Source of the DNA: Thermodesulfobacteriota bacterium
GTDB taxonomy: Bacteria > Desulfobacterota > Desulfarculia > JACQYL01
Direction of reading: 5' to 3'
DNA length: 64,000 bases
Assembly: GCA_963675595.2 (NCBI GenBank)
Contig: CAXXLZ010000001.1
Span: 576,001 to 640,000 of the forward strand
Shown one piece after another: positions 1-27,528 of the stretch. The position numbers were made by a program, and so were the translations under genes. The notes below the pieces were generated by a model. That model did not search any database. It was given only the letters and a program-made list of their open reading frames with translations, and was not told where the DNA came from. Numbering within the stretch: the stretch's first letter is position 1; each line of letters begins with the position of its first letter.

Positions 1-177
1 GCCGAGGACGACGGCATGGGCTTTGACCCTCTCACGATAGGAGAGGGAAAGGCCGGATTGGGTTTGCTGGGCATGAGGGAACGTGCGGCGCTGGTGAACG
101 GGAAGTTTCAGCTCAAGGCGGTCCCGGGCAAGGGTACACGTATACGTATCGAGATCCCCATCGAAGAAATGAACTGA
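1..177 (+). CDS. C-terminal fragment of NarX/UhpB-type sensor histidine kinase (HATPase_c), truncated by window edge
   Basis: Frame 1 reads AEDDGMGFD...GLGLLGMRERAALVNG...PGKGTRI (G1/G2 boxes). Stop at 175-177, directly before the response regulator. Confidence 0.9.
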   Translation, partial: AEDDGMGFDPLTIGEGKAGLGLLGMRERAALVNGKFQLKAVPGKGTRIRIEIPIEEMN

Positions 178-178
178 A

Positions 179-853: not shown

Positions 854-1516
854 CCGCCACTCCCTTCCCGCAGGACCTCCTTCCCAACGAGCTCTACCCT
901 TAGGGTGTAGCGCACTTCAGGATTCCTCATTGTTTTGTTCAGAGTGTCCGGCTGTTCCGCAGTAGGTTTTGAACTGCGGAAACATCAACCCGGAGACGAT
1001 TCGACTCGTCGGCCCGAAGTCCGAGGAGCTGTCCGTTTGGAAAAAGTCCATTGTGACTTCAGTTAGTTATCATCGGGCTATGTTGGGCCGCGTGTTTTCG
1101 ATGGACGGTCACAAGAGTCATTGGAAGAAAAAATGGACCGTGGATAAGAAAAAAATCGTCTTTTGGACGATGGTAACCCGAAACCACTTTTCGATATACG
1201 GACTATTAGCGTGGCGCATAGCCATCCAGTGCGTCTGCGTTCCCCGATCACCCTGGCAGCAGGACGGGTCCGGCCTCCCCCGGGCCCGTGAAAGGGAAAG
1301 AACCTGAATACCCTGTCTTACAACAAATCAGGGCTCCATTGTGCGATTCGACTCGCGTCGGATAGCGCTCTCCATTTTCTATCCCATCCAACTCGAAGGT
1401 TTGTCGGAGCTTTTCGCCGCAGCCGTTTTCCCGCGCGGCAGCCCTGGGCTTGGGTTGCGGGGTGAAGCGCGCGACCGTGAGATAACCTTGAGCATTTATT
1501 CAGAAAAGGAGGAAAT

Positions 1517-2473
1517 ATGTTTAAGTTCGCTACTGAGCAGAAAGTCGCCGAAGTCGGAGGGGTGAAGTTTGGGGGTCAGCCGGGCGAGTATCCCTGTGTG
1601 TGCTGCGCTTCGATCTTCCAGAAGGGTGACAAGGTATTCGAAGGCAAGAAGAGGAAAGAAGGATTCAACGAGGAATACGGACTCGAGCTGTTACAGTCCG
1701 CGGAGAAGATGTGGGATGAAACCGGGGTTCCCATTATGGCGGACATTGTGGCGAATACCGGAGCGGAGTTTCAGCAGTTTATCGATTTTGTGACCAATAA
1801 TTCGAAGCTCCCCTTCTGCGTGGATGCCTGGGTCATGAAGCCCAAACTCGAAGGCGCCGCATATTGCGCTGAGAAGGGTCTTTTGGACCGCATGTTCTAC
1901 AACAGCTTGACGGTGTGGGAACAGGACCTGGAAACGGAGATCAAGGAAATCGCCGACATCGGCGTCAAGCACGTGCTTCTGGTTGCTTTCGATCAGGAAG
2001 ACCAAATGCCTTCCGGACGAATCACAGGGACCCAGAAACTACTGGATGTCATTGACAAGGTGGGCGCCAAATTTGAAACGATTTTCGTGGACACGTCGGT
2101 CATGAATGCTCCCGCGACGGCCATGTGCTCCATCGCCAACCGGATGGTCAAAGAGAAATGGGGATTCCCCGCATCGAGCGCTCCCAGCAACGGCTCCTAC
2201 ATGTGGAAAAAAGCCGCCCAGGACAAATGGGGATTCAAGGGCTGGTCCGCAACGGACGCTTCCCTCGAAGGGCTGTCCGCCTTCATGTATCACGACATGA
2301 TTTTCAGCGGTCCCATGGCGGGCTGCTCGCGCATTGCACCCGCGGTGGCGTTGGCGGAAGCTTTCCTGGCCACATGGGTGTTCGCCGAAACGAAGAAACT
2401 TCCCGAGTTGGCAACCCACCCGCTGTACAAGGTGTTCCCGGATTTCGCCGAGCAGATGAAGGGTATGATGTAG
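1517..2473 (+). CDS. MtrH/MtgA-like methylcorrinoid:tetrahydrofolate (pterin) methyltransferase
   Basis: N-terminus MFKF..EQKV..VGGVKFGGQPGEYP is typical of the MtrH family, and the end is HPLYKVF. SD AAGGAGG upstream. Confidence 0.88.
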   Translation: MFKFATEQKVAEVGGVKFGGQPGEYPCVCCASIFQKGDKVFEGKKRKEGFNEEYGLELLQSAEKMWDETGVPIMADIVANTGAEFQQFIDFVTNNSKLPFCVDAWVMKPKLEGAAYCAEKGLLDRMFYNSLTVWEQDLETEIKEIADIGVKHVLLVAFDQEDQMPSGRITGTQKLLDVIDKVGAKFETIFVDTSVMNAPATAMCSIANRMVKEKWGFPASSAPSNGSYMWKKAAQDKWGFKGWSATDASLEGLSAFMYHDMIFSGPMAGCSRIAPAVALAEAFLATWVFAETKKLPELATHPLYKVFPDFAEQMKGMM

Positions 2474-2536
2474 AGCGGAAGAGAATCCTGAAGCAGAAAA
2501 ACCATGTCCACAGGGGGACGAAAGGAGCGAGTAAGA

Positions 2537-3589
2537 ATGGCTGAAATGACGCCGAAGGAAAGAGTGCTTAGCCTGTTGAAGAGAGAACCCATCGATACCA
2601 TGCCCTTCTTCAGCGGTATGGGTATGGTGGTCATGCCGGGGATCAAGAAAGCCGGATTGAAGTTTCCTCAGGTGCACACGGACCCGAACAAAATGGCCCA
2701 GTCGGCGATCTGGTCCGCCAAGCTGATGGACTTTGATTGCGTGGTCATTCCTTACGACATGTGTATGGAATCCGAGGCCATGGGAAACAAGATCAGCTTG
2801 TACGAGGATTCCGAAGACATCCTCTATCCGACCATCCCCAATAAGCAATGGAAAACCATGGACGAGGTAGTGGTGCCCAAGAACATTATGGAATTGGGTC
2901 GCATGCCGCTGGTTCCCAAAGCTATTGAAATCATCAAGAAGGAAGCGCCGGAGTATCCCGTGGGGTGCTGGGTGCTCGGACCGTTCACCCAGACCGGCCA
3001 AGTTCTGGAACTGGACATGATCCTCAAGGCCGTTTTCAAGCAGAAGAGCCAGGTTGAAGCGCAGCTGGACAAGATGACCGAAATGGCGATCATTGAAGGA
3101 CAGGCCTTCCAGGCCGCCGGATGCGACTACATTACGCTCCGGGAGCCGGGGGTGGCCGCCGACCTGCTCAGCCCGAAAACGTTCAAGGAAATGATCAAGC
3201 CCAGACTGACCCGAATTCTCGAGGCTTGGAAGTCCCCGAAGATCCTCCATATCTGTGGTTCCTGCGACCCATTGGTGGAAATGATGGCCGATTGCGGCGC
3301 CGACGCCATCACGGTGGACATCAAGACCAGCATCGCCGACGCTCGAAAGAAGCTGGGCGACGATGTGTTGATCTTCGGGAACCTGGACACCTACAATATG
3401 ACGTGCAAGCCGGAAACGCCCAAAGAGATGGTGGTGGAAGAAATCAAGAAGACCATCGACAACGGCGTGGACGCGGTCATGCCCGGCTGCGACTTGTGGC
3501 CCGACATCAAGGAAGAGAATATGCTGGCTTGTGTCCAAACGACACACGAGTACGGCAAAAAACCCAGTCCGGCCGGCAAACGTTTATAG
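2537..3589 (+). CDS. MtaA/CmuA-family (UroD fold) Zn methyltransferase
   Basis: MTPKERV start, LGPFT, LHICG (HxC Zn ligands) and MPGCDL (third Zn ligand). Start moved to ATG 2537 behind AAGGAG. Confidence 0.92.
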   Translation: MAEMTPKERVLSLLKREPIDTMPFFSGMGMVVMPGIKKAGLKFPQVHTDPNKMAQSAIWSAKLMDFDCVVIPYDMCMESEAMGNKISLYEDSEDILYPTIPNKQWKTMDEVVVPKNIMELGRMPLVPKAIEIIKKEAPEYPVGCWVLGPFTQTGQVLELDMILKAVFKQKSQVEAQLDKMTEMAIIEGQAFQAAGCDYITLREPGVAADLLSPKTFKEMIKPRLTRILEAWKSPKILHICGSCDPLVEMMADCGADAITVDIKTSIADARKKLGDDVLIFGNLDTYNMTCKPETPKEMVVEEIKKTIDNGVDAVMPGCDLWPDIKEENMLACVQTTHEYGKKPSPAGKRL

Positions 3590-3628
3590 CAGTTGAAAGA
3601 CCTATAATCACGAAAAGGAGTTTGAGAC

Positions 3629-4300
3629 ATGGCGACGAAAGAAGAGATTTTGAAGGGACTTAGTGATTCCGTAGTGGAGTACAATGAAGACGGCGTTAAG
3701 GAATGGTCCAACAAAGCGTTGGAAGAAAAAGTGGACCCCCTTGAGGCGATCATGGACGGTTTGGCTCACGGCATGCAGATCGTGGGCGATCTCTATGAAC
3801 GTAATGAATACTTTGTGCCGGAAGTTCTGATGTGCGCCGATGCGCTTTACGCCGGTCTGGACATTCTTCGACCCCACGTGCCCCAAGAGCAAAGCGGCAA
3901 GATGAAGGGCCAGGTCGTCATCGGTTCCATCCAGGGCGACGTGCACGATATCGGTAAGAACTTGGTGAAGATGATGTTCGACGTAGCGGGCTTCGAGGTT
4001 TACGACCTGGGCCGCGACGTGCCTCTGGAGAACTTCGTGAAGGAGCAGCTCCGCACGGATTCGGAAATCGTGGCCATGAGCGCCATGATGACCACCACCA
4101 TGCTGGGCATGAAGAAGGTCATCAAGATGATCAAAGAAAAGAACCCCAACGTGATGATCATGTTGGGCGGGGCCCCCGTGACCCGTGACGTATCCACGCT
4201 GTTCGGCGCCGACGGCTACGCGGAAAGTGCCGGAAACGCGGTTACCGAAGGAATCAAGATGATTGGGCGCCTCAGGGAAGTGGAAGGCAAGAACAGATAA
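3629..4300 (+). CDS. Corrinoid (B12-binding) methyltransferase protein, MtaC/MtbC type
   Basis: Helical cap (EYFVPEVL), GDVHDIGKNLV (DxHxxG), SAMMTTT, MLGGAP. Confidence 0.95.
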   Translation: MATKEEILKGLSDSVVEYNEDGVKEWSNKALEEKVDPLEAIMDGLAHGMQIVGDLYERNEYFVPEVLMCADALYAGLDILRPHVPQEQSGKMKGQVVIGSIQGDVHDIGKNLVKMMFDVAGFEVYDLGRDVPLENFVKEQLRTDSEIVAMSAMMTTTMLGMKKVIKMIKEKNPNVMIMLGGAPVTRDVSTLFGADGYAESAGNAVTEGIKMIGRLREVEGKNR

Positions 4301-4477
4301 TGTGCGATCCGCCGTGGCCTTTTGGGGCACGGCGGGTTATGAAGGGTCCGGATTCCGTTGCCGGGACTGGTCTGGACGCGGGTCCGGATTCACCGCATAC
4401 GTGTTGGACGAACCGTGCGCGGGAACAAAGACGTTTCGCCGGAGAGGCGGAAGAGAACGACTGGAGGAAAGGCGTTA

Positions 4478-6535
4478 ATGGCAAACGACGATACTGTGAT
4501 GGTGATATTCCAACCTTCCGCTCGCCGGGGGCGTGTAAAAAAAGGCTTGAACATTATCGAAGCCTCGCGTGACATCGGTGTGGATATTGAGGCCCTGTGC
4601 GGGGAGAAGAAAGTCTGCGGAAAATGCAAGGTCCGCATCGAGGAAGGGTACTTCGAAAAATATAATATAACGTCCAACATGTCCCATGTTTCTGAATGGC
4701 AGGAAGAGGAAGCCAAGTTCATCAAGGGCAAGGAAAAGGAAGAAGGCTTTCGCCTCGGCTGCGTGGCCAAGATAATGGACGACGTCCTGATTTTCGTGCC
4801 CGAGGAATCCCGCGCCGGTAAGCAGGTGGTGAGCAAGGCGGCCCGCGACATCCATATCGACAACAACCCCGCGGTGAAAACCTACTATGTGGAAATGGAT
4901 CCGCCGACCTTTGAAGAGCCGAGAGGCGACTTTGAGCGCATCGAGGACGAACTGGAAAGAGAGTTCGGTCTCAAGAATCTCCGGCCGGACATCCAGTGCC
5001 TCAGAGACATTCCGGCTGCGGTACGAGACGGCGACTGGAAGGTTACCGCGTGGGTGTGGAACGACCGCGAGGTCATTCGGGTCATGCCCGGAAAAGTGGA
5101 AGACTCCTACGGGATCGCCATCGATATCGGTACCACGACGGTTGCCGGGTATTTCTGCAACCTTCGCACCATGGAGGTGATCAACACCCGTTCCATGATG
5201 AATCCCCAGTGTAAGTACGGTGAGGACGTCATGGCCCGGATCACCTACCATATGATGAACGAGGGCGGCCTTAAACGAATGAGCGATGAGATCATCGCCG
5301 GCTTGAATACCATCATCGACGACCTCGTCGCGGGAACTCATCCGCCCAAGGATCGCAAGAAAAAGAAGAAGGCGGAGGAGGAAGAGCTGGAGGACTTGCC
5401 GGAAAAAGAAGATGAGAGCAAGTACCTGTGCCTGGATCGTGAGGACATCGTTGACCTTACCCTGGTGTTCAACACGGCCATGCATCACATCTGCCTTCAG
5501 CTCGACCCGCAGTACGTCGGACTGGCTCCCTTTCCGCCGGTAATCCATAAGGGGCTCGACGTCAAAGCACGCGATTTGGGACTGAACCTCAACAAGTGCG
5601 CCTTCGTGCACGTGCTCCCCAATGAAGCCGGTTTCGTGGGCGCGGACAACGTGGGCGTGCTCATCGCCGAGGAGCCGTACAAGAAGGATGAGATGGCGCT
5701 GCTCATCGACATCGGCACCAACGGTGAATTGGTTTTGGGCAACAAACACAAGATGGTTTCCTCCTCCTGTGCCACCGGTCCGGCCTTGGAAGGCGCTCAG
5801 CTCAGCTACGGCATGCGGGCGGCCCCGGGTGCCATCGAGCGTATCGAGATCGATCCGGAAACACACGAGGTCAGTTACAAGACCATCGGTTGTGATGCGT
5901 GGTCCAAGTTCGCGGATAAGAAGGACCTTAAGACCAAGGGCATCTGCGGGTCAGGTATTCTGGACGTGCTGGCCGAACTGTACAAGTCCGGCGTCATCAA
6001 CAAGGCCGGGCGGTTCAGCAAGGACCAGAAGTCCAATCGGTACCGGATCAATCCCGAAACCAAGCAGCCTGAATTCGTCATCGCGTGGTCCGACGAAACT
6101 TCCATTAAGAAGGACGTGGTGATTTCGCAGAAGGACATCCGGCAGATTCAGTTGGCCAAGGGTGCCTTGTATTGCGGGTGCAAGCTCATGATGCGCCGCA
6201 TGGGCGTGGATAAGGTGGACACCATCAAGATCGCCGGTGCGTTCGGTACGCATGTGGACCGGGCCAAGGCGTTGATCATGGGGCTGTTCCCCGACTGTGA
6301 AATCGAAAAGATTCATTCCGTGGGCAATGCCGCCGGTGACGGCGCGCGCTGCGCACTGCTGAACAAGGAGAAGCGGACTGAGGCCAACTGGGTGGCCAGA
6401 AACGTGGAATACATCGAACTGACGGTGGAAGAGGATTTCCAGAAGCAGTTCATGGAAGCCATGCAGATTCCGCACATGACCGATCCTTTCCCGCATCTGA
6501 GAGGCGTGGTGAAAGACGAGATTCTGGACCAGTAG
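4478..6535 (+). CDS. ASKHA-family reductive activator of corrinoid proteins (RACo/RACE) with N-terminal 2Fe-2S domain
   Basis: CGEKKVCGKC...RLGC ferredoxin motif, IDIGTTT, YGEDVMARI, GFVGAD, IDIGTNGE, CATGPALEG, GICGSG, GNAAGDGA. Likely start is ATG 4478 behind GGAGG. Confidence 0.95.
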   Translation: MANDDTVMVIFQPSARRGRVKKGLNIIEASRDIGVDIEALCGEKKVCGKCKVRIEEGYFEKYNITSNMSHVSEWQEEEAKFIKGKEKEEGFRLGCVAKIMDDVLIFVPEESRAGKQVVSKAARDIHIDNNPAVKTYYVEMDPPTFEEPRGDFERIEDELEREFGLKNLRPDIQCLRDIPAAVRDGDWKVTAWVWNDREVIRVMPGKVEDSYGIAIDIGTTTVAGYFCNLRTMEVINTRSMMNPQCKYGEDVMARITYHMMNEGGLKRMSDEIIAGLNTIIDDLVAGTHPPKDRKKKKKAEEEELEDLPEKEDESKYLCLDREDIVDLTLVFNTAMHHICLQLDPQYVGLAPFPPVIHKGLDVKARDLGLNLNKCAFVHVLPNEAGFVGADNVGVLIAEEPYKKDEMALLIDIGTNGELVLGNKHKMVSSSCATGPALEGAQLSYGMRAAPGAIERIEIDPETHEVSYKTIGCDAWSKFADKKDLKTKGICGSGILDVLAELYKSGVINKAGRFSKDQKSNRYRINPETKQPEFVIAWSDETSIKKDVVISQKDIRQIQLAKGALYCGCKLMMRRMGVDKVDTIKIAGAFGTHVDRAKALIMGLFPDCEIEKIHSVGNAAGDGARCALLNKEKRTEANWVARNVEYIELTVEEDFQKQFMEAMQIPHMTDPFPHLRGVVKDEILDQ

Positions 6536-6586
6536 GGGAAGACATCCTCGGAGGGCTCAGTGCCCTCCGGGGGATTTCGAGGTTGT

Positions 6587-6913
6587 ATGAAAGTTCGAGT
6601 GGATCCTGGAATTTGTGGATTTCATTGTAAGATTGAAGCGGTAAAACAAGAGAAGTATCGAGTTAAGTTGAGCATCGAGAGCGAATGCAAACTTATTCGG
6701 CATTTGGCTGATGAAGTCGTGGAAATGGACATGAGAGACGTGGTGGGAAAACCGCACGGCACGAGCGTGTTGGTCCAAAACGCGGGTCGCTGCCGTCTTC
6801 ACGCGGCATGTCCCATACCCATGGCGTGTATCAAGGCTGTCGAGGCGGAACTAGGTTTGGCGTTGCCGCGACCGGTTCGAATCGACTTCGAGGAGGAAGA
6901 CGGGCAAAGTTAA
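6587..6913 (+). CDS. Small Cys-rich conserved protein (DUF6951-like)
   Basis: PGICGF...SEC...CRLHAACPIP..IKAVEAELGLALP pattern. Follows the activator gene. Confidence 0.7.
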   Translation: MKVRVDPGICGFHCKIEAVKQEKYRVKLSIESECKLIRHLADEVVEMDMRDVVGKPHGTSVLVQNAGRCRLHAACPIPMACIKAVEAELGLALPRPVRIDFEEEDGQS

Positions 6914-7525
6914 GGAGGCCTTTCGCGCACCATGCTTGGCGAGTCGACAAGGTGGCCCCTATAGCGCTATAATTTTGTTTAAACGGTATAAATAAGCTGT
7001 GAGAGACCGATGACGGTTGTTGCACCTGCGAACAGATCTCTGCCGCGGTTCCCCTCGGGCGGGAGGTGACGTTACCCTTCCGGCGCCGGGATGCGTTCGG
7101 TGGTGTTCGACCGAAACCTCGCAGGTTCGCCGTGGGGTCTTGCGCGGAAGTCCGGCCCCGTCTCACGCCGCCGAAGAGTTCTTTCCGGCGGGAAACGCCC
7201 TGTAGATCAAAGACGTTCGTCTCAGATCATCCATCACTTTCCCAACGCATTCATTGAAGCATCGATCGTAGATAGGTTCTGCCAGGGTTCCCCGGTGACT
7301 CGATCCGGAGCTTTACTCGAGGCTCTCGAGAAGAGTGACCGCGATCCTGAACGTCCAACCGGTTCACATTGGAGACCAACGGACGCCCCCATTAGGCGTC
7401 TCAAGGCTTACCCTCGGACACTTTTGTTACTCCCGTTGGGGGGCGGGAACAACCAAGGTTCCGGCAGGGTGAAGTGTGAAGTAAGGTGAAGGTAAGAAGG
7501 ACCGAAACCAAGTAAGGAGGTACAC

Positions 7526-8587
7526 ATGGCGAAACAGCTACTCATTGATGCGTACCACGGAAAGAAGACCAAGGGTGTTCCGTGGGTGCCCTATGCCGGG
7601 GTTCATTGCGCATTCGTCATCGGGGAACCCGGTGACAAGTACATGCAGGACCCCGAGCTCCTGGCCAAGGGCGTGGTGGAGACGGCCAAGCTGTACAAGG
7701 CGGACGGAATTCCGTTGGTCTTCGACCTTTCCGTTGAGGCCACTTCCATGGGTTGCGGCATCAAATGGTGGCCGGATAACGTGCCCAGCGTAACGACGCA
7801 CCCCGCCGCCGGCTGCAGCGTAGCGGAAGCCGGACTGAAGATTCCCGGTCCCACCGACGGTCGCTGGCCCGTCCTCATCGAAGCGGCCAAGATCGCCAAA
7901 CCTCAACTGGACGAACTGGATTGCGCACTGATGGGCCTGCTTTGCGGGCCTCTCACCTTGGCCGCCCATCTCAAAGGCGTCAAAGTGTTTACGGATGTCT
8001 ACAAAGACAAAGCGGCCGCGCATGACGTAATCTCGTTCTCAGGCAAGGTGGCAGCCAAATCCGCCGAGATCTACGCCGACATGGGATGCGACATCATCGC
8101 CATCGTCGATCCCGTGGCTTCGCAGATCAAAGATGAAACCTTCCAAGAATTCGTAACCCCCAATTGCCAAGAAGCCATCAAAGTGATCCACGAACACGGA
8201 AAGACCTCCTCTTTCTTCATTTGTGGAGACGCCACCAAGGTGATGAAGTCCGTGGCTACCCTCGGGACCCATGGATTCGCCATCGACGAGCAGTTAAACA
8301 TGAACTTTGTCCGCGACATCGCTCTGAAATACGGCGTTGGATTCGGCGGCAACTTGAAGCTCACCCTGGCTCTTTCCCTGGGTCTGCTTTCTCCTCGTGA
8401 AGACGCCATTGTGAGTCTGGCCGCGGGAGGGTGCCACGGCTACACCTTCGCCCCTGGGTGAGACATGCCTTACGATGTTCCGGTGGAACATATGCAGCAG
8501 GCCATGGAGGCGAGAGACTGGTACTACGAATACTACGCCGCCTATCCCGATGATCCCGATATCGCGAAGACCTTCAAGGTCGCGTAA
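7526..8587 (+). CDS. Putative selenocysteine-containing MtaA/UroD-fold methyltransferase (353 aa, Sec312)
   Basis: TGA at 8459-8461 falls in FAPG-U-DMPYDVP, equivalent to PG-C-DL of the paralogue. The frame stays open for 41 more codons to TAA at 8585-8587, which overlaps the SD of the next gene. Confidence 0.88.
8475..8491 (+). promoter_or_regulatory. Bacterial SECIS-like hairpin
   Basis: ATGTTCC-GGT-GGAACAT, a perfect 7-bp stem with a G-containing loop starting 20 nt after the UGA. Confidence 0.75.
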
Positions 8588-8598
8588 GGAGGTTGGAT

Positions 8599-8985
8599 AT
8601 GGCAACCATCAACATCGATATCCTCACACTGGACAGCGTTCAATGCGCGGCGTGCGGATATATGACGGAGGCCATCGCGGCCCTGCCGGATGACGTCCAG
8701 CAGCTGATTCAGTACAAGGAATGGTCGATCAAGCAGAAGGAGGGCATCGGTAAGTTCCTCGAGCTGAAGGGGAAGGTGCTTCCCACCATCTGTATCCAGG
8801 GTGACCTGGTATTTGAGAGTATCATTCCCCAATACGAGGAATTGATCGACGAAATGGCCAAAAGGGCTCCCAGCCCGGAGGTCGCCGATCGGCTCAAATC
8901 TCTCAGAGAGAAGGGCTTCGACTTCGAAAAAATCCAGGAGAACCTGGCGAAAGCCGGTGCGGGGCAGAACACCAGAGCGAATTAG
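8599..8985 (+). CDS. Thioredoxin-fold protein (CxxC), methyltransferase-associated
   Basis: IDILTLDSVQCAACGYM and cis-Pro motif LPTICI. SD AAGGAGG at 8586-8592. Confidence 0.85.
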   Translation: MATINIDILTLDSVQCAACGYMTEAIAALPDDVQQLIQYKEWSIKQKEGIGKFLELKGKVLPTICIQGDLVFESIIPQYEELIDEMAKRAPSPEVADRLKSLREKGFDFEKIQENLAKAGAGQNTRAN

Positions 8986-9018
8986 CCCCGCTCCCCCGGC
9001 TTCTAGCCGAAACGATTT

Positions 9019-9051
9019 CCATAACCGCCGGGTGCTTCCCGGCGGTTATGG
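9019..9051 (+). terminator. Strong hairpin (terminator or mRNA-stabilising stem)
   Basis: CCATAACCGCCGGG-TGCTT-CCCGGCGGTTATGG, a 14-bp stem with only a weak U-tract. Confidence 0.55.
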
Positions 9052-9246
9052 GATTTCGCCCCTCCGATCCTCGATAAGCGTTTTATTCGCCGAGAACGGG
9101 AACCCGGATTTTTGAACAGATGAGTTCCCGCGAGGTTGGGGGCGAGGGAATTGTCTGCGTGAAGCAGGGGAGACGAAACGCGCATCAAACGGGGATCTTT
9201 TCCCGGCAACTATTTAAGATGAGTCAGGAAAGGGGTGTTCTTCAGG

Positions 9247-9585
9247 TTGCCTAAAATCCATTTGGAGATCATCTATCAGGGAGAGCATTGCCCACAGTGT
9301 TTTTACATGCTCGAGGCCGTTGAGACGGTGGCGCCCAAGTTTGGGGACCGTATCAGCTATGAACTCATCGAGTACACCAAAAACAAAGCTCACGCCCGTC
9401 GTTTCTATGAACTTTCCGTTTCCCTCCATGGCGAAAAAGCGGTTCGAGGGCTGGTCAGGGTAGCGCCGATACCCTCCATATTCATCGGCGGCAAACTGGT
9501 TTTCGATTGTATTCCGCCCTTGGATGAACTCGAAGAGACTCTCGCCGGGCATCTGGCCTTGGCCGAGGGGCAGGCTTCGGAGTGA
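9247..9585 (+). CDS. Thioredoxin-fold protein (CPQC)
   Basis: IIYQGEHCPQCFYM...PIPSIFIGG. Start is either TTG 9247 or GTG 9235. Confidence 0.82.
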   Translation: MPKIHLEIIYQGEHCPQCFYMLEAVETVAPKFGDRISYELIEYTKNKAHARRFYELSVSLHGEKAVRGLVRVAPIPSIFIGGKLVFDCIPPLDELEETLAGHLALAEGQASE

Positions 9586-9591
9586 ATTCCC

Positions 9592-9876
9592 ATGGCCAAA
9601 GTTCGATTGGAGGTCGTTTACGAGGGGGACCATTGTATTCCGTGCGTCTACATGGCGAGACTCGTAGAGGAAGTGGTCCCGCGTTTCGGTGAAAAGGTGA
9701 CTTGGGAGAAAATCGTGCTGCGGGACAAGGCAGGCGCCAAACGGTTTCATGAGCTGTCCGTTGCCATGGGCAGACCGGCTCCCATACCCTCCATCTTTAT
9801 TGACGGAGAACTACGATTTTCCATAACACCGGCGGCCGAGGACCTGGAAGCCGCCTTACGTGAGTGCTTGGACTGA
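9592..9876 (+). CDS. Thioredoxin-fold protein (CIPC)
   Basis: VVYEGDHCIPCVYM...PIPSIFIDG. Clear paralogue of the previous gene. Confidence 0.85.
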   Translation: MAKVRLEVVYEGDHCIPCVYMARLVEEVVPRFGEKVTWEKIVLRDKAGAKRFHELSVAMGRPAPIPSIFIDGELRFSITPAAEDLEAALRECLD

Positions 9877-9900
9877 GTTGCGTGTCCATGGTTCGGATGC

Positions 9901-10830
9901 ATGTACATTTTTAAGACTACATCCGTATGTGCGCGGGAGATTCACTTCGAACTTGATGGAGAAGTGATCCGATGGGTCCGCTTTGTGGGTGGCGGGTGTC
10001 CGGGAAACGCGGATGCGGTGGCGCGACTGCTGGAGGGCAAGACCCTTGATAGCGTGATCCCGATGCTTCGGGGGATCCCCTGCAGGGAAGGCACCTCGTG
10101 CCCAGATCAGCTGGTGCGTGCTTTTGAGTCGGTCCGGGCCGGGACAATGGCTCCCGCTCCCGCGATTCCCGTGGAGTCGGAGACCGAACCGTTGTGCCGG
10201 GTCGCCGTTGTGGCCGACGTCAATGGGAACCTCCGCGCGTTGGAGCGCTTCGCGGGTGTTTTTGAAACCGAAGATGTGCAGGCCGTGTATTGTTTGGGAA
10301 ATCTTGTTGCTCGCGGTATGGATAACGACTCTGTGGTCGGGTGGGTCCGGAAAAGCGGGTGGAGGTGTCTTCAAGGTTCTCTGGACCGGGCGTCCGCTCA
10401 CTTGTGCTCCGGAAACGCGAACGACGATAACGTACCTGTTCTCGAACCCAGAAACCGGGACTTCCTGGTAACCCTCCCACTGATGCGAACCTTTTTGATG
10501 GACACTCGAAAGGTTTTGGCATTTTACGATGGATTCATTCAGGATCTCGAAGGGTTCTCGGACTATGCGCCTTTTTCCACCGAGATCATTCAGGTCTGTG
10601 ATCTCAGTGAATACTTGAGCGACGAAAGCGTGTTTCCCGCTTTGGAGGCTATGACCGGGCAGTTTTCCTCGGATGTGGTGCTTTTCGGACACACCGGGAA
10701 AAACAAACACGTACGGTTGGGAGAGGTGGACTTCGTCAATGTAGGAGCGCTTTCGCTCAGCTCGTCCGGCACCTATACCTTGTTGACCCTCGATAATGGA
10801 AAACTCGTAGTGGAATTCAAACGCATTTGA
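9901..10830 (+). CDS. TSCPD/TIGR03905-like 4-Cys domain fused to a degenerate calcineurin-like metallophosphoesterase domain
   Basis: N-terminus VCAREI...GGCPGN...GIPC..GTSCPDQL. C-terminus ADVNGN, CLGNLV, LQGSLD, FGHT, NVG. Confidence 0.8.
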   Translation: MYIFKTTSVCAREIHFELDGEVIRWVRFVGGGCPGNADAVARLLEGKTLDSVIPMLRGIPCREGTSCPDQLVRAFESVRAGTMAPAPAIPVESETEPLCRVAVVADVNGNLRALERFAGVFETEDVQAVYCLGNLVARGMDNDSVVGWVRKSGWRCLQGSLDRASAHLCSGNANDDNVPVLEPRNRDFLVTLPLMRTFLMDTRKVLAFYDGFIQDLEGFSDYAPFSTEIIQVCDLSEYLSDESVFPALEAMTGQFSSDVVLFGHTGKNKHVRLGEVDFVNVGALSLSSSGTYTLLTLDNGKLVVEFKRI

Positions 10831-10871
10831 GTTGAGAGGTCGCCAAGAGCGGGTTGTATTAGGAGGATCAG

Positions 10872-11150
10872 ATGGCAAGAGTGACAGTGGACGTGCTGCT
10901 GACGGATTTCAGGCAGTGACTGGCCTGCGTCTACATGGCGGAATCGGTAAAGGCTTTACCGAATGAGATACAAGACCTGATCGAAGTAAGAGAGTGGGAC
11001 ATGCGCACAAGGGAGGGAGTGGTCAGGTTCAAGCAATTGAAGGCGAAATCTCTTCCCAGCGTTGCCCTCAACGACGAACTCGTGTTCGAAGCCAATATCC
11101 CTCCTCAGGAAGACCTGATTCAGGCAATTAGGGACCGATACGTCGGATGA
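10872..11150 (+). CDS. Putative selenoprotein, thioredoxin-fold UxxC protein (92 aa, Sec16)
   Basis: SD AGGAGG at 10861 and ATG 10872 give MARVTVDVLLTDFRQ-U-LACVYMAES, in frame with the track ORF at 10935. It aligns with DSVQ-C-AACGYMTEA of 8599..8985. Confidence 0.9.
10944..10962 (+). promoter_or_regulatory. Bacterial SECIS-like hairpin
   Basis: TCGGTAAA-GGC-TTTACCGA, a perfect 8-bp stem with a GG loop 32 nt after the UGA at 10917-10919. Confidence 0.65.
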
Positions 11151-11515
11151 AAGGGGGAAGGTGCGCGGGCATGCGCGCTGCTTTTCACAAGTGTCTTTGC
11201 GTTTCATCACGGAAGGAAGGCGTCGCGAACGGTGCTCTGCCGTACCGGCGATGCCGGAGACGGTTTCTGGAAGGCGGACGACACCCGTGAGGCTTGAGAA
11301 TGCTCTTTGGTGCGGTCGTACCGGCCCGGTCGGCTTTTACGCTGCGGGTGGTTGGAACGGCCCGGAGAGGACGGTGGGGGCTCTTGGCGAATCCTCCGCA
11401 TGCCGAATTCGTCGATTCGGAGTCAAACGAAATTTCGTAACCGGACTTTAGCTTGAAATACAGGGAGTGCCGGGGGAATCCATACGACGGCTGTTTTCCC
11501 CTCGCGAAGGTCTAC

Positions 11516-12499
11516 ATGCTTTTTCTAGAAGAATTCAAAGCGCATGGATTCAAGTCTTATGCGGAGGAAGTCACCGCTTCATTCAATCCCGGGATCGGAG
11601 TGATCATCGGGAACAACGGGGTGGGAAAATCCAACATTCTTGACGCCATCACTTGGGCGTTGGGAGAGGACGATCTTGGGAAACTCAGATGCTACTCCAC
11701 GGAGGACTTGTTCTACACGGGGGGGAAGGACCATCCACGTGCGGAAGAAGTCCGGGTGGAACTGCGTTTCAAAAAGGGACCCGATAAGAACGATGAAAGT
11801 TTCGTGACCTCGCGTTGTCTGGACCGATCCGGAATCGAATCCTATTTCATCGAGGGAGATCGACTTTCCAAGGACGCCTACCGAGAGCGCCTTTTTGAGT
11901 TTGGGCTCGGGGATGCCCTCAAGTCCCTGGTGAGGCAGGAGGAACTCAACGACTTCCTGCAACTGCACCCCTGTGATCGTCTGGAGTACTTTCGGTTCTT
12001 TGTTGAATCATCGGCGGAAGAATCGGACAATGGCGCGGGGATTGAGGCCTTCGACGCCGAGTTTCGCAGACTTTACAGGGGCATGATGGCACGAGGTGAT
12101 GGGCGTGTTTTCATTGATCGGTTCAACGGTCGCTCAGGACTCGAAATAGAGGTGACTTTTCCCGACAAAGGGACCAAGAAGGCACGGTTCCTCTCGGGAG
12201 GTGAGAAAACCGTGGCGTCGCTTGCGGCGAAGCTTGCGCTGTTCGGCAGGCTGCAGTCTCCCTTCTACCTGCTCGACGAGGTGGAACCCTCTCTGGATTG
12301 GACGAACCATCGGAACATGTCCAATTTACTGAAGGACTTGGCAAAACGACGGCAACTGATCATGATCACCCATCTCAGGAGCACCATCGAGGTGGCCGAC
12401 ACGGTTCACGGGGTAAGAACCCAGTTTGACGGCAGCTCGTTTATGAAGTTCCATTTCGTCATGGATAAGAGGTTACTCCGCCTCTACAAATGCTGTTGA
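11516..12499 (+). CDS. Mini SMC-type ABC ATPase (head only, about 327 aa) ending in Cys-Cys
   Basis: GFKSY, Walker A GNNGVGKSN, Q-loop VRQEE, signature LSGGEK, Walker B LLDEVE, H-loop ITH. No long coiled coil or hinge. Confidence 0.85.
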   Translation: MLFLEEFKAHGFKSYAEEVTASFNPGIGVIIGNNGVGKSNILDAITWALGEDDLGKLRCYSTEDLFYTGGKDHPRAEEVRVELRFKKGPDKNDESFVTSRCLDRSGIESYFIEGDRLSKDAYRERLFEFGLGDALKSLVRQEELNDFLQLHPCDRLEYFRFFVESSAEESDNGAGIEAFDAEFRRLYRGMMARGDGRVFIDRFNGRSGLEIEVTFPDKGTKKARFLSGGEKTVASLAAKLALFGRLQSPFYLLDEVEPSLDWTNHRNMSNLLKDLAKRRQLIMITHLRSTIEVADTVHGVRTQFDGSSFMKFHFVMDKRLLRLYKCC

Positions 12500-12538
12500 T
12501 AATCCTTGGGCATTGACTTTGTGGTGCGTAGGAAGGTT

Positions 12539-12844
12539 ATGATGGATTCGGAGAAGGCACTGGACGTCCTGAGTAACATTATTTTCGACAATGCGCTTCC
12601 TCATACGGTCTACATGTTGGTGGGCGTCCGGTGTCCTTATTGTGGAAAGTCCGATCGAATACGACCATTGGAGTCGCCCGGCGAGGTATCCGGCCTGTCC
12701 GAATCGGAGTTCAGGCTTTACCGGGACGCATGGGACGCTTTGACGACGGATGACGGAACGTTGGGGGTCTGCTTTTTCTGTCGTCAGGTGATCGGCCTGG
12801 ACGTCGACTTGTCCCGTGCGGGTGCACTCACGGAACTGGAGTGA
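12539..12844 (+). CDS. Small Zn-ribbon-like protein
   Basis: CPYC and CFFC pairs. Lies within the operon. Confidence 0.65.
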   Translation: MMDSEKALDVLSNIIFDNALPHTVYMLVGVRCPYCGKSDRIRPLESPGEVSGLSESEFRLYRDAWDALTTDDGTLGVCFFCRQVIGLDVDLSRAGALTELE

Positions 12845-12857
12845 GGAGTAGGAATTC

Positions 12858-13931
12858 ATGACGCAACCATCGTCGATTGCAGGCTCGGCCAAAGCCAAGG
12901 TGGTACTGCTGGCGGGGTTTCTGGGGGCGGGAAAGACCACGCTGTTGAAGCGAATCTTATCCTGGGAGGGCGACCTTTCGGACACCGTTGTGCTGGTGAA
13001 TGAGTTCGGCGACGTGGGCATCGACGGAGCTCTGCTTCAGCAAGCGGGTTCCGACGTGATCGAACTGACCAGCGGCTGCATTTGCTGCACGCTGGCGGCC
13101 GACTTAATCCAGAGTCTGAAAGGCATCGCGGAGCGTTTCAATCCGAAACGAATCATGATCGAAGCCACGGGTGTTGCAGATCCCACTTCCATTACGGCCG
13201 TGCTGGATCAGCCTTTCATCAGGGATGTAATGGAGCATCAATCCACGCTGACCGTTCTTGACGCCGATTTCTGGGAGGCGAGGGAAAACTTCGGGCCGCT
13301 GTTTTATCGTCAGTTGAGCGAGGGGGATCTGATTCTTCTCAACAAGATCGACTTGCTCGAACCGGAACAGGTCCCCGTGTTCCTAAAGGAGATTCATCAA
13401 GAGTTTCCCGGTAGTAGGGTAGTGCCTACGGTGCACTGCGCAGTGGACCCGGACACTTTGTGGAATGTGCGATCCAAACGACACGGCGGAACCGAGTTGG
13501 CTCCTTTTTTCCCCACGCTCTCCGTCGAGCAAGGCGATGAGCAGGGAACCGCCGAACACCACCCACATCATCATAGTGATCATCATCACCATGGGCACGA
13601 TCACCACCATGGGCACGATCACCACCATGACTGCGAGTCCCATGCGGGGATTCAGGCCCCGGAGGCGGGATATGTCAGCTTCTATTTTCGGGACGACCGG
13701 CCCTTGGACGAAAGCCTTTTCGCGAGTTTCCTGGCGGAATTACCTTGGGAGGTGTTTCGGGTGAAAGGTCCGGTACGTTTCCCCGACAAGACCTTGTTGG
13801 TGAATTTCGTCGGAGGCAAGGCCGAATGGATCGACTGGGAGGACGTGGGCACAAGCCTTGCCTTTGTCGCTTGGAAAGTGGACTCCCGGGAGATTCTTTC
13901 AAAGCTGGAACGGTGTTTTGCCCCTTCTTGA
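12858..13931 (+). CDS. COG0523/CobW-family G3E GTPase metallochaperone with His-rich insert
   Basis: GFLGAGKTT, VNEFG, GCICC, EATG, LNKID, a His-rich stretch and C-terminal RVKG. Confidence 0.93.
   Translation: MTQPSSIAGSAKAKVVLLAGFLGAGKTTLLKRILSWEGDLSDTVVLVNEFGDVGIDGALLQQAGSDVIELTSGCICCTLAADLIQSLKGIAERFNPKRIMIEATGVADPTSITAVLDQPFIRDVMEHQSTLTVLDADFWEARENFGPLFYRQLSEGDLILLNKIDLLEPEQVPVFLKEIHQEFPGSRVVPTVHCAVDPDTLWNVRSKRHGGTELAPFFPTLSVEQGDEQGTAEHHPHHHSDHHHHGHDHHHGHDHHHDCESHAGIQAPEAGYVSFYFRDDRPLDESLFASFLAELPWEVFRVKGPVRFPDKTLLVNFVGGKAEWIDWEDVGTSLAFVAWKVDSREILSKLERCFAPS
13582..13629 (+). repeat. Tandem 18-bp repeat encoding (HHHGHD)n
   Basis: ATCACCATGGGCACG/ATCACCACCATGGGCACG units, about 2.5 copies. 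Confidence 0.75.
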
Positions 13932-13973
13932 AGGACTGAGGACCGACAATTACCGTCCAGGGAGGAAGAGAAG

Positions 13974-14219
13974 ATGAAAATCCAGGTATTAGGCCCAGGC
14001 TGCAAGAGATGCAATCAACTTTACGACAATGTCGTTGAAGCGGTGAAGAGCCTGAATCTCGCCGACCGGGCAGAGATTGTCAAAGTGGGAGACTTGGACG
14101 TTTTTGCAAAATACGGCGTGTTCACCACGCCCGGTCTGGTCATCGACGAGCAGGTCATATCCGTGGGTAAGCTATTGACCGTTCAGGAAATTGAAAAAGA
14201 GATCAAAGCGAGGATCTAA
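13974..14219 (+). CDS. Small redox-active disulfide protein (MTH895/TM0996 thioredoxin family)
   Basis: MKIQVLGPGCKRC...YGVFTTPGLVID. Confidence 0.9.
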   Translation: MKIQVLGPGCKRCNQLYDNVVEAVKSLNLADRAEIVKVGDLDVFAKYGVFTTPGLVIDEQVISVGKLLTVQEIEKEIKARI

Positions 14220-14221
14220 TC

Positions 14222-15229
14222 ATGGCGGGAAAGACGTTCGTCTTTCTGATCACCGGCTTTTTGGGATCGGGGAAGACCACATTTCTCAACCGGGTTATCC
14301 GCCAATTCCCGGGAGATCGCAAGCTGATGATCCTGATGAATGAATTCGGCGAGGTCGACGTGGACGGTACGCTGGTCGAGGGTGAGGACCTCGATATGGT
14401 GGAGATCAGCAAAGGTTCCATCTTCTGTGCCTGTGTTAAGACCGATTTCGTCAAGGCGCTGAATTCCATCGCCCAGACCATCCGTCCCGACGTGCTGCTC
14501 ATCGAATCCACGGGCGTGGCCAACCCATCCGACTTGAAGAGAGATCTGAGACTATCGATTTTTAAGGATCGATTCCAATTTCAAGAGCAGTTCTGCATGA
14601 TCGACGCCGGTCACTTCCTGGACGCCTACGGTGCCTACCAGTCCATTGAGAAGCAGTTGGCTTCGTCCACGGTTTTCTTGATCAACAAGACGGATACCGC
14701 CGATGGGGGAACCATCGCTCGGATCAAAGAGGTGGTTCGGGAGCACCATCCGGACCCCGTGTTTCACGAAACGACTTTCGCCGAAGTCGATGTAAGTCAT
14801 CTTCTCTTGCCCGGAGAAACCGAGGAAGCGTTCTCGGAAGAGGGACCGGATACACCCATGACTCCGGAAGAACTGGACAGCTACTGTGAAAAATTGTTAG
14901 AAGATCCTGAAGCGCAGGTGACCCCTCCGGACCGTCTTCTTTCCGCGGTGTACCGGTGGGAAGGCGAAAGTATTGATGCCTTCAAGAAAACGGCCGGCAA
15001 TCTTCCTAAAGGGATTGTGCGTTCCAAGGGGTTCCTGGTGGATGGCGAGGAAACGGTCCTGTTCAGTTATGTTCTGGGGGACTGGAAGTTGATGCCGCGA
15101 CAGGTTCCCGACGGAAGGGCGGGGCAGAAAAACCTGATCGTGTTTATCGGTTCCCCGGAGTCCATGGCGGAGCTTGCCGAAAGAGCCTCGGAGGCGAATC
15201 TTTCGCCGGCGCCCAAGAACGAAGCATGA
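14222..15229 (+). CDS. Second COG0523/CobW-family GTPase
   Basis: GFLGSGKTT, MNEFG, variant metal motif GSIFCAC, ESTG, INKTD, RSKG. Confidence 0.9.
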   Translation: MAGKTFVFLITGFLGSGKTTFLNRVIRQFPGDRKLMILMNEFGEVDVDGTLVEGEDLDMVEISKGSIFCACVKTDFVKALNSIAQTIRPDVLLIESTGVANPSDLKRDLRLSIFKDRFQFQEQFCMIDAGHFLDAYGAYQSIEKQLASSTVFLINKTDTADGGTIARIKEVVREHHPDPVFHETTFAEVDVSHLLLPGETEEAFSEEGPDTPMTPEELDSYCEKLLEDPEAQVTPPDRLLSAVYRWEGESIDAFKKTAGNLPKGIVRSKGFLVDGEETVLFSYVLGDWKLMPRQVPDGRAGQKNLIVFIGSPESMAELAERASEANLSPAPKNEA

Positions 15230-15266
15230 CCACTCAAAGCGTCCCAAAACGGAACTGGAGAACGGA

Positions 15267-15566
15267 ATGATTACGGTGATTGCTACGCTGGAAGCCAAAG
15301 AAGGAAAGGAAGAAGCTCTGGAGAAGGCCCTGTCGCAGATCATTGAGCCCACGAGAAAAGAGGGCGGTTGCATCAACTACGATTTGCACCGCACATTGGA
15401 CAACCCGAAGGTGTTCGTGTTCTATGAAAATTGGACGGGTCGCGCCGAGCTGGACGCCCATTTGAGCGCCCCTCATATGGTGGATTTCATCGGCAAGGCG
15501 AAGGAGCTTCTCGCGCGGCCTTTGGATGTCTCTTTGCTCGAAATGCTCTCCGAACCCGCCTCATAA
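15267..15566 (+). CDS. Antibiotic biosynthesis monooxygenase (putative quinol monooxygenase) family protein
   Basis: TRKEGGCINYDLH...FVFYENW...LDAHL..PH. Start behind GGAG. Confidence 0.85.
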   Translation: MITVIATLEAKEGKEEALEKALSQIIEPTRKEGGCINYDLHRTLDNPKVFVFYENWTGRAELDAHLSAPHMVDFIGKAKELLARPLDVSLLEMLSEPAS

Positions 15567-15668
15567 TCACGCCGACTGATCCACGCCCTCGTCGCCTTCC
15601 GGTACACGCCGCGACGGGGGCCGAGTTTTTGTCCCGTATTTTGAGTTCACCGCATCAAGCGTAATAGA

Positions 15669-16562: not shown

Positions 16563-16654
16563 TGCGACCCTCGCGTGGAAGAGCGCGTCGGGTGACCGGT
16601 GCCGTTCCGCCTCGACAGTTTTAAATCGTCACATTCGGGAGTCCTATCCAAGCC

Positions 16655-26009: not shown

Positions 26010-26019
26010 GATTCGCCCC

Positions 26020-27525: not shown

Positions 27526-27528
27526 GGA

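Follow-up and report, generated by a model that had tools for sequence, protein, structure and literature searches.

A predicted selenocysteine-containing MtaA-like protein in a conserved gene cluster for corrinoid methyl transfer and thioredoxin-fold proteins in sulfate-reducer-type bacteria

We analyzed a 64,000-nucleotide (nt) stretch of the genome of a Thermodesulfobacteriota bacterium (assembly GCA_963675595.2, contig CAXXLZ010000001.1, positions 576,001 to 640,000 of the forward strand), referred to here as the window, in which an original prediction from the letters alone had placed a selenium-dependent methyl-transfer and redox cluster at 1517-15566. This cluster is real, is widely conserved, belongs to bacteria of the sulfate-reducer type, and joins B12-type methyl transfer, a selenocysteine (Sec) methyltransferase, and thiol/selenol redox proteins. 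Open-reading frame analysis with Pfam and NCBIfam scans placed the cluster genes in one orientation on the + strand within 1517-15566, and the domain scans recovered every element that had been predicted at its expected place, including five thioredoxin (Trx)-fold proteins, one of which contains an in-frame TGA. The two-component system expected upstream was also located, with its regulator at 179-853 and its kinase just before the start of the window. Two genes had been overlooked in the prediction, those for DUF6951 (6560-6913) and for an ABM-domain protein (15267-15566). The features are listed below.

179-853, + strand: response regulator of the LuxR/NarL type (Pfam Response_reg and GerE)
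1517-2473, + strand: MtrH-like methyl-corrinoid:tetrahydrofolate methyltransferase, MtgA-like (PF02007, 144.8 bits)
2504-3589, + strand: UROD1, methyltransferase of the MtaA/CmuA family (PF01208, 198.5 bits)
3629-4300, + strand: corrinoid (B12-binding) methyl-carrier protein (B12-binding and B12-binding_2; TIGR02370, 206 bits)
4358-6535, + strand: RACo-type ATP-dependent reductive activator of the corrinoid protein (RACo_C_ter, 322 bits; Raco_middle; RACo_linker; N-terminal 2Fe-2S domain, Fer2)
6560-6913, + strand: DUF6951, small Cys-rich protein, CGFxC ... C ... GCHxSC (PF22263, 100.5 bits)
6914-7525, + strand: non-coding spacer or leader of 612 nt, 5′ of UROD_Sec
7526-8587, + strand: UROD_Sec, MtaA-like protein with predicted Sec, TGA at 8459-8461 (PF01208, 155 bits)
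8599-8985, + strand: TrxA, Trx-fold protein of 128 amino acids with the motif SVQCAAC (no Pfam family; Trx fold in the AlphaFold2 (AF2) model)
9271-9585, + strand: TrxB, HUIPC-related Trx-fold protein, HCPQC (NF047660, 74 bits, below the cut-off of 105)
9592-9876, + strand: TrxC, member of the HUIPC-motif Trx-like (seleno)protein family in its Cys form, HCIPC (NF047660, 132 bits, above the cut-off of 105)
9901-10830, + strand: fusion of a TSCPD (four-Cys) domain with a YfcE-type metallophosphoesterase (PF12637, 63 bits; Metallophos_2, 29 bits; TIGR03905, 81.7 bits, passing its cut-off)
10872-11150, + strand: TrxU, predicted Trx-fold selenoprotein, QULAC, TGA at 10917-10919 (TrxA paralogue, 42% identity)
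11453-12499, start probably 11528, + strand: mini-SMC, head-only ABC ATPase of the SMC/Rad50 type (SMC_N, 158.5 bits)
12506-12844, + strand: Zn-ribbon-like CxxC...CxxC protein of 112 amino acids (weak Pfam zinc-ribbon matches only)
12858-13931, + strand: COG0523a GTPase with a GCICC motif and a long His-rich stretch (cobW, 146 bits; CobW_C, 42 bits)
13974-14219, + strand: Trx3, Trx-like protein of the MTH895/ArsE family, CKRC (TIGR00412, 85.5 bits, above the cut-off of 62)
14222-15229, + strand: COG0523b GTPase with the metal motif altered to FCAC (cobW, 130 bits; CobW_C, 22 bits)
15267-15566, + strand: ABM-domain protein (PF03992, 75.7 bits)

Orthologous loci were collected from three sources: a search of 41 relatives, which yielded six genomes; a pattern scan of species-representative genomes, which gave 35 more loci, mostly from Desulfobacterales-type metagenome-assembled genomes (MAGs) together with one labelled Bacillota, one Acidobacteriota, and one Myxococcota; and a TrxA search over 401 genomes sampled from the phylum. 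Counts refer to 49 non-identical loci with the window included, to 40 related loci for some features, or to 28 well-flanked loci with 4 kb or more of sequence on each side. Left out of the counts were L046 (G and L numbers are our handles for genomes and loci), in which the URO-D gene is split, and the TrxU-centred loci L059-L068, while L049 (the window's own locus), L051, L055, L057, and L058 were replaced by longer stretches. A gene was scored as present from an identity of 45% upward in the case of UROD1 and the response regulator, from 40% in that of the thioredoxin reductase (TrxR)-like protein, and from 30% in that of the corrinoid protein. Besides this genome, 48 others show the arrangement.

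The in-frame TGA at 8459 of the window is almost certainly a selenocysteine codon. At this column the UROD_Sec orthologues (n = 49) carry Sec in 46 cases and Cys in three, and the reading frame is conserved past the TGA. A Cys paralogue in the same genome (C2:2857594-2858631, 72% identity) reads APGCDMP where the window reads APGUDMP, and no cluster partner genes lie within 12 kb on either side of it. Judged by its conservation, the TGA in TrxU is a selenocysteine codon as well, with Sec in 13/13 orthologues read and the QULAC motif aligned with the CAAC of TrxA. A hairpin of 6 bp with a G-rich 3-nt loop lies 17-32 nt past the UGA of UROD_Sec and persists in the consensus that RNAalifold gives for 37 sequences, and a hairpin after the UGA of TrxU is conserved across 14 sequences. 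The support from these hairpins comes from their conservation, since the z-scores of the single sequences are unremarkable (-0.56 for UROD_Sec and -0.50 for TrxU). A search for tRNA-Sec and SelB found both in the genome, the former at C1:971408-971505 and the latter as a SelB wing domain (79.5 bits) on C3.

UROD_Sec has an altered active site. PF01208 spans its residues 2-331 (155 bits against a cut-off of 23.9), and its score against TIGR01463 (mtaA_cmuA) is 126.4 bits, which fails the cut-off of 235.4. In the alignment with MtaA of Methanosarcina mazei (4AY7, E 8e-24), FFICG stands opposite LHICG and APGUD opposite APGCG, i.e., in FFICGD ... APGUD a Phe replaces the zinc-ligand His and Sec replaces the distal ligand Cys. 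Where the zinc triad would be His-Cys-Cys, the window and 46/49 orthologues have Phe-Cys-Sec and three have Phe-Cys-Cys. F230, F231, C233, E255, and U/C312 are invariant in 39 UROD_Sec sequences, with Glu255 standing 22 positions after the proximal Cys. UROD1 aligns with 4AY7 over its full length (E 6e-50), retains LHICG and PGC as a canonical His-x-Cys ... Cys zinc site, and reaches 207.4 bits against TIGR01463, below the same cut-off. In excerpts of the work of Kountz and Balskus (PMC10418091), the His-Cys-Cys triad marks the S/Se-methyltransferases of the URO-D superfamily, while the O-demethylases carry carboxylates. By this rule UROD1 would fit an enzyme for a thiol, thioether, or selenoether, and UROD_Sec would fit neither class. 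A thiophilic substrate, as originally predicted, is thus consistent with UROD1, since its triad is the one assigned to S/Se-methyltransferases (PMC10418091), while the substrate itself and the direction of transfer are things that we infer.

UROD_Sec and TrxA are closely linked. TrxA starts 15-205 nt 3′ of UROD_Sec in 44 of the 48 loci with downstream sequence, and in the reverse test UROD_Sec lay just 5′ of TrxA in 10/10 TrxA genomes among the 401 sampled. Within the 28 well-flanked loci, TrxA was found in 26; a COG0523 gene and the corrinoid protein in 24 each; Trx3, DUF6951, and TrxB in 17 each; UROD1 and RACo in 16 each; MtrH in 13; TrxC and TrxU in 12 each; the TrxR-like gene and the Zn-ribbon gene in 10 each; DUF2284 and an MtmB-like gene in eight each; the mini-SMC in six; and the TSCPD-phosphoesterase in four. 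The order UROD_Sec-TrxA-TrxB-TrxC-TrxU-mini-SMC-Zn-ribbon-Trx3 is seen in G063, G103, and G138. The same gene set occurs in other orders in G204 and G138, with the whole set within ~30 kb after rearrangement; an example runs V4R-histidine kinase-response regulator-UROD_Sec-TrxA-MtrH-...-UROD1-corrinoid protein-RACo-DUF6951-DUF2284-COG0523-...-TrxB-TrxC-TSCPD-phosphoesterase-TrxU-mini-SMC-Zn-ribbon-Trx3-COG0523. In the 6.8-Mb genome of the window, TrxA, TrxU, the TSCPD-phosphoesterase, the Zn-ribbon protein, and DUF6951 have no further copies beyond each other, and these together with TrxB/C and the mini-SMC are specific to the system. The accessory genes co-occur with the methyltransferases across genomes and rearrangements, so the absence of such co-occurrence, which the original prediction had named as grounds for its own rejection, is not what was found.

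The same data bear on whether the stretch is a mere juxtaposition of unrelated units, two or three in number: an operon for methyl transfer, general housekeeping genes for thiols and metals, and a repair or defence unit of mini-SMC and phosphoesterase. Long gaps at 6914-7525, 8986-9270, and 11151-11527, a terminator-like site at 11163-11178, and the match of the mini-SMC to mad3 of PADLOC (3.1e-42) would all suit such an origin, as would the fact that the TSCPD-phosphoesterase/TrxU/mini-SMC unit stands 13-14 kb away from UROD_Sec in two genomes (G204, G388) and is split from it onto other contigs in G233. Against this stand the adjacency of TrxA in both directions of search, the UROD_Sec-to-Trx3 order kept in three genomes, the confinement of the whole rearranged set to ~30 kb, and the position of TrxU, a TrxA paralogue embedded among the other Trx genes. 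In addition, a scan of three neighbours for other MADS genes gave only a weak mad8 match (3.9e-4). We consider chance juxtaposition quite improbable.

TrxA has no Pfam family. Its AF2 model (predicted local distance difference test score, pLDDT, 83.8) shows a Trx fold with a cis-Pro and a helical C-terminal tail, and its best matches in the PDB are thioredoxins and ArsD at a weak E of ~0.01, with all PDB matches at E ≥ 0.01. The SVQCAAC motif is invariant in 35/35 orthologues. There are 1824 database relatives at E ≤ 0.001, and among the 120 listed with source names all are called 'hypothetical protein' except one 'antirestriction protein'; the ESM Atlas clusters returned were named only 'hypothetical protein' or 'putative Glutaredoxin', from Thermodesulfobacteriota. 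Against NF047660, which TrxC passes and TrxB does not, TrxU scores 46 and TrxA 35 bits. NCBIfam has no model specific for UROD_Sec, TrxA, or TrxU, and TrxU does not match the TsoA model. TrxB is present in 24/49 loci, as is Trx3, which nearly always lies directly 5′ of COG0523b, while TrxC takes Sec forms in 9/40 related loci and TrxU is almost always followed by the mini-SMC gene. As many as three selenoprotein genes occur per cluster, and two of the companion Trx-fold proteins are selenoprotein families. In 13/49 loci a TrxR-like gene for a pyridine-nucleotide-disulfide oxidoreductase of ~310 amino acids (Pyr_redox_2, CSLCDG motif) lies 3′ of COG0523b, which makes a chain reducing disulfides or selenenylsulfides the natural reading of the Trx-fold genes and lends support to the dedicated thiol/selenol recycling that had been predicted. 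An orthologue is found in the genome of the window at C2:2338284-2339243 (52% identity). Separately, in one family, represented by G204 (L070 13010-14967), an NADH_4Fe-4S protein and an NfnB/GltD-like Fer4_20/Pyr_redox_2 flavoprotein stand between MtrH and UROD1, another possible electron source.

The remaining components of the methyl-transfer core are of recognizable types. The MtrH-like protein scores 259 bits against NCBIfam PRK00979.1-1 and 156 bits against MtgA, each under its own cut-off, and its gene is present in 20/49 loci; the corrinoid protein is present in 31/49. DUF6951, with Cys columns invariant across orthologues and an AF2 model at pLDDT 82.8, is found in 23/49 loci and accompanies UROD_Sec even where RACo and MtrH are lacking.

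COG0523 metallochaperone GTPases carry a CxCC metal motif. GCICC is found in COG0523a and FCAC in COG0523b, which is present in 33/49 loci, and the Zn-ribbon protein (15/49) usually stands between TrxA and the Trx3-COG0523b pair. The metal-insertion machinery proposed in the original prediction fits these genes, as COG0523 and Zn-ribbon proteins suit such a role. COG0523 genes also adjoin three other URO-D genes in this genome and are generic there. As a separate observation, three genes recur together near the cluster in several genomes (L013 2593-5400; L015 14472-16300; L016 3438-5300; L019 13897-15800; L072 5206-7046): one for a regulator of the PadR family that has a Cys motif at its N terminus, one for a distantly related COG0523 GTPase, and one for a Trx protein of the MTH895 type. 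The TSCPD-phosphoesterase is found in 4/49 UROD_Sec-centred loci and in further TrxU-centred loci. The mini-SMC (8/49), whose gene sits in the midst of the Trx genes, corresponds to an SMC head that lacks the coiled coil (1E69, E 6e-39). At L020, from ~14709, its orthologue contains an in-frame TGA (CKKNUSLKFS), which may reflect either another selenoprotein form or an error in sequencing.

At the position of the 612-nt spacer (6914-7525), other genomes carry a DUF2284 gene, a COG0523 gene, or both, DUF2284 being present in 12/49 loci. The spacer holds no DUF2284 remnant, and an Rfam search of 1-17000 at E ≤ 1 gave nothing in this leader and only a sub-threshold ylbH match at 16208-16348. Conservation with two relatives is confined to its last ~120 nt (~7400-7525), and a TCCCG..GGGGGCGGG element lies inside this stretch, ~90 nt before the start codon of UROD_Sec. 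The best promoter-like site is at 6944-6973 (11/12 positions). Metatranscriptome contigs from one run are identical to 7221-7592 and 7892-8170 and differ at 1-3 positions from 8143-8469, 8757-9066, and 13823-14091; this is a weak hint of expression, as contigs of a single run cannot prove transcription, transcript ends, or strand, and the uncovered parts are uninformative.

With moderate confidence, we favour the reading that the cluster is one functionally linked system of two separable modules, in which corrinoid methyl transfer at a sulfur or selenium atom is combined with redox maintenance of a Cys/Sec pair and with metal insertion. Module 1 (1517-6913) would be an ordinary bacterial corrinoid methyl-transfer set, in which UROD1 exchanges methyl groups between a small S- or Se-containing molecule and the Co(I)/CH3-Co(III) corrinoid protein, the MtrH-like enzyme connects this carrier to tetrahydrofolate (THF), and RACo re-reduces oxidized cobalt. 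Module 2 (7526-15229) would be centred on a distinct MtaA-like subfamily in which His has become Phe and the distal Cys has become Sec, with the proximal Cys and the carboxylate position kept. UROD_Sec is proposed to catalyze a methyl-transfer step at a soft atom of the S/Se type with the same kind of corrinoid protein, and its Cys/Sec pair may form selenenylsulfide or substrate adducts, either because it is prone to do so or during turnover. The CxxC/UxxC chain of Trx-fold proteins, headed by TrxA, would then re-reduce this pair with electrons supplied by the TrxR-like flavoprotein, whose gene belongs to the cluster in other genomes but lies outside it here. Loading of the active-site metal, in the manner of HypA/HypB, may fall to the Zn-ribbon protein together with the COG0523 GTPases.

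Several observations weigh against this reading. UROD_Sec retains Glu255 and Cys233, which would allow a metal site to survive and does not require redox activity of the Cys/Sec pair. This window contains no TrxR-like gene, and the four loci that lack TrxA have the most divergent UROD_Sec orthologues (61-64% identity). In 8/28 loci the Sec module follows a corrinoid protein and a non-interrupted MtmB-like gene, never with MtrH, and in three of the five carrier genomes searched whole (99-100% complete) no MtrH-family (PF02007) gene was found, which indicates that the link to THF is not general. COG0523 and DUF2284 are general neighbours of URO-D loci in this genome, which makes them general helpers and not special to the cluster. 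The TSCPD-phosphoesterase and the mini-SMC, the latter with its mad3 match, are among the rarest of the genes counted in the well-flanked loci (4/28 and 6/28) and have no obvious role in methyl transfer. The closest folds to the DUF6951 model, IscU/NifU/SufU at Z 6.0-4.2 (best root-mean-square deviation 3.5 over 94 residues), lie under the usual noise level of the tool, 7-8, and the numbers of promoter and terminator sites are at the level of shuffled sequence.

The Sec module is separable from the THF core. Routing of methyl groups to THF, as originally predicted, agrees with the MtrH gene in this cluster and does not extend to the Sec module at large. At G397 a Cys form of the URO-D protein, TrxA, the corrinoid protein, RACo, and DUF6951 occur alone, beside NMT1-type binding proteins. 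The separability would fit UROD_Sec acting on the corrinoid protein from the acceptor or donor side, independently of folate, much like MtbA in its work with MtmB/MtmC in methanogens.

The altered Cys/Sec site also raises the question of metal(loid) chemistry, in which it would bind arsenite, antimonite, tellurite, selenite, or organometals, for example methylmercury or methylarsenicals. In one form, the methyl group of CH3-Co(III) would be passed to the metalloid, and the Cys/Sec pair and Trx chain would reduce the oxidized product; in the other, methyl would be stripped from an organometal and passed to THF. Without the His ligand, the site is left as a soft one with two ligands, Cys and Sec. 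CxxC/UxxC proteins are numerous in the system, which also has a TrxR-like gene; Trx3 is of the MTH895/ArsE family, and ArsD is among the weak fold matches of TrxA. There is precedent in ArsM, which works through a Trx-coupled disulfide cascade, and in MtaA, which methylates metalloids in vitro. DUF2284 is fused to an arsenite methyltransferase in a selenoprotein family listed in excerpts of a review (PMC13188914), but it also adjoins other corrinoid loci in this genome and is thus not specific to arsenic. No ArsR, Acr3, ArsC, Mer, or efflux genes are among the families recurring in at least 4/40 loci, the regulators are a PAS/GAF kinase, V4R proteins, and GntR or PadR types, and ABC importers of the NMT1 and amino-acid types beside some clusters point to an organic substrate. 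On this balance we regard metal(loid) chemistry as unlikely.

A related and similarly unlikely possibility is that UROD_Sec differs from ordinary zinc thiol-methyltransferases in linking corrinoid methyl transfer with a two-electron redox step of thiols and selenols, driven by its own Trx chain. It could then act as a SAM (S-adenosylmethionine)-independent, corrinoid-dependent methylase of arsenic, selenium, or tellurium species, or as an anaerobic enzyme that demethylates methylmercury, methylarsenicals, or methylated Se/S species through a covalent Se-S/Se-Se intermediate and passes the methyl to THF. We know of no genes yet assigned to such an anaerobic demethylase activity in sulfate reducers.

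No characterized operon matching the cluster was found, and the cluster fails the defining features of each of the nearest described systems. MtaA, MtbA, and MtsA of Methanosarcina (PDB 4AY7/4AY8) are likewise enzymes of the URO-D fold encoded beside a cognate corrinoid protein and an activase, but UROD_Sec differs from them in having Phe for His, Sec for the distal Cys, a dedicated Trx-fold partner, and a score below the TIGR01463 cut-off. The hosts also differ from those methanogens, being bacteria with no use of coenzyme M known to us. Several MtaA-like URO-D paralogues, a corrinoid protein, and a RACo/Ram activase are shared by our cluster with the type 1 mlp clusters and with the sdm genes of Methanococcus voltae (PMC10418091). 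Like ours, these are found in Sec-using anaerobes and have a proposed role in the metabolism of methyl-sulfur or methyl-selenium compounds. The mlp clusters described there contain no THF methyltransferase and encode Mlps that are almost invariably His-Cys-Cys, unlike the present cluster with its MtrH-like gene at 1517-2473 and the Phe-Cys-Sec site of UROD_Sec. A term search of that paper returned no Sec-containing Mlp, Trx-fold partner, or COG0523. THF-linked systems of the MtgABC type resemble module 1 in combining a substrate methyltransferase, a corrinoid protein, an MtrH/MtgA-like protein, and RACo, but here the substrate enzyme is of the MtaA and not the MttB type, and a second, Sec-containing methyltransferase is attached together with redox accessories.

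The mec cassette, with which the original prediction had compared the cluster, matches it in composition only: a two-component regulator, MtrH-like, MtaA/CmuA-like, corrinoid, and RACo proteins, a protein of unknown function (here a DUF protein), and an extra methyltransferase. This composition is what would favour halomethane metabolism in the manner of mec or CmuA, in which the URO-D enzymes would load the corrinoid with (chloro)methyl from CH3Cl or CH2Cl2 and the Sec/Trx proteins would handle reactive halomethyl-thioethers. The comparison does not extend further, as the kinase has PAS, GAF, and HisKA_3 domains and no PocR domain, the host phylum differs, and domain scans found no MecJ-type antiporter or any other transporter among the genes in 1-17000. 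UROD1 moreover has the thiol-type His-Cys-Cys triad. The mec preprint (10.1101/2021.08.30.458270) has no occurrence of the word thioredoxin and none of selenocysteine, and reports no close homologues (>35% identity) outside Dehalobacter genomes at that time. A halomethane pathway appears very improbable, the least likely of the explanations considered.

Likeness to known selenoprotein families is also partial. TrxC passes the HUIPC model (NF047660), unlike TrxA, TrxB, and TrxU, which fall below its cut-off, and the CobW-related selenoprotein (NF041053) is another of the closest known cases. The SAO and Tso multi-selenoprotein operons resemble the cluster in having several selenoprotein genes in one place, here up to three. 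These families and operons (Haft & Gwadz 2023; Haft & Tolstoy 2025) were consulted through excerpts of a review (PMC13188914). The pairs formed by HypA/HypB and by COG0523 metallochaperones offer the parallel of a small Zn-ribbon-type protein and a His-rich GTPase of the SIMIBI class beside a metalloenzyme gene, although the Zn-ribbon protein has no sequence relationship to HypA and the pairing here would follow from gene order only. The literature searched contained no description of a URO-D-type selenoprotein; the source of the HUIPC family (Haft & Tolstoy 2025) and supplements lay outside this search, so a partial prior description is possible. Term searches of the Olavius delta1 symbiont paper found 12 methyltransferase passages, none of the URO-D type, and those of reviews from 2022 and 2026 found none listed.

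Corrinoid methyltransferase systems govern the use of methylated sulfur, selenium, nitrogen, and halogen compounds by anaerobes, and here a whole subfamily, in at least 49 genomes, has apparently swapped zinc ligands for Phe and selenocysteine and gained a private set of Trx-fold proteins. Gene callers that halt at TGA would cut UROD_Sec at residue 311, and TrxA is named a hypothetical protein in all but one of the source names listed, which would leave the pathway invisible in metabolic reconstructions of sulfate-reducing sediment, peat, and rhizosphere communities. The cluster thus offers a defined candidate for unexplained anaerobic transformations of methyl-chalcogens or methyl-metalloids, and a natural case for the role of selenium at a position that normally holds only zinc.

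Around the cluster, a PAS-PAS-GAF-HisKA_3 kinase and a V4R-domain protein are encoded just 5′ of the window (G000:C1:573096-576177, G000 being this genome); a V4R-domain orthologue has 58% identity, and the response regulator has an orthologue in 14/49 loci. A candidate reading frame, orf112 (969-1307), is probably not a gene, as it matches no family and lacks homologues in all related loci. The ABM-domain gene, present in 1/40 related loci, is probably outside the conserved system. The genes downstream of 15566, lipoyl synthase and others, are separate from the cluster. A lipoyl synthase gene lies a few kb 3′ of TrxA both in the window (15669-16562) and in the Bacillota-labelled MAG (L033, from 15614), which may be a coincidence.

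The window contains a second, separate corrinoid locus on the minus strand at 23310-29487, which comprises a B12-binding protein (28849-29487), a URO-D protein (27529-28542), a short RACo-like activase (26020-27525), and a hybrid PAS histidine kinase (23310-26051). Genome-wide, 18 PF01208 matches correspond to ~16 URO-D loci. At G000:C1:16153-17007 a URO-D match runs over three frames with one in-frame TGA, with COG0523 and DUF2284 genes nearby, and may be a broken paralogue or a recoded gene. The genome also carries tRNA-Pyl (G000:C2:125847-125918) as well as tRNA-Sec, which, together with the ~16 URO-D paralogues, indicates that both expanded-code amino acids and many methyl-transfer systems are used by this organism.

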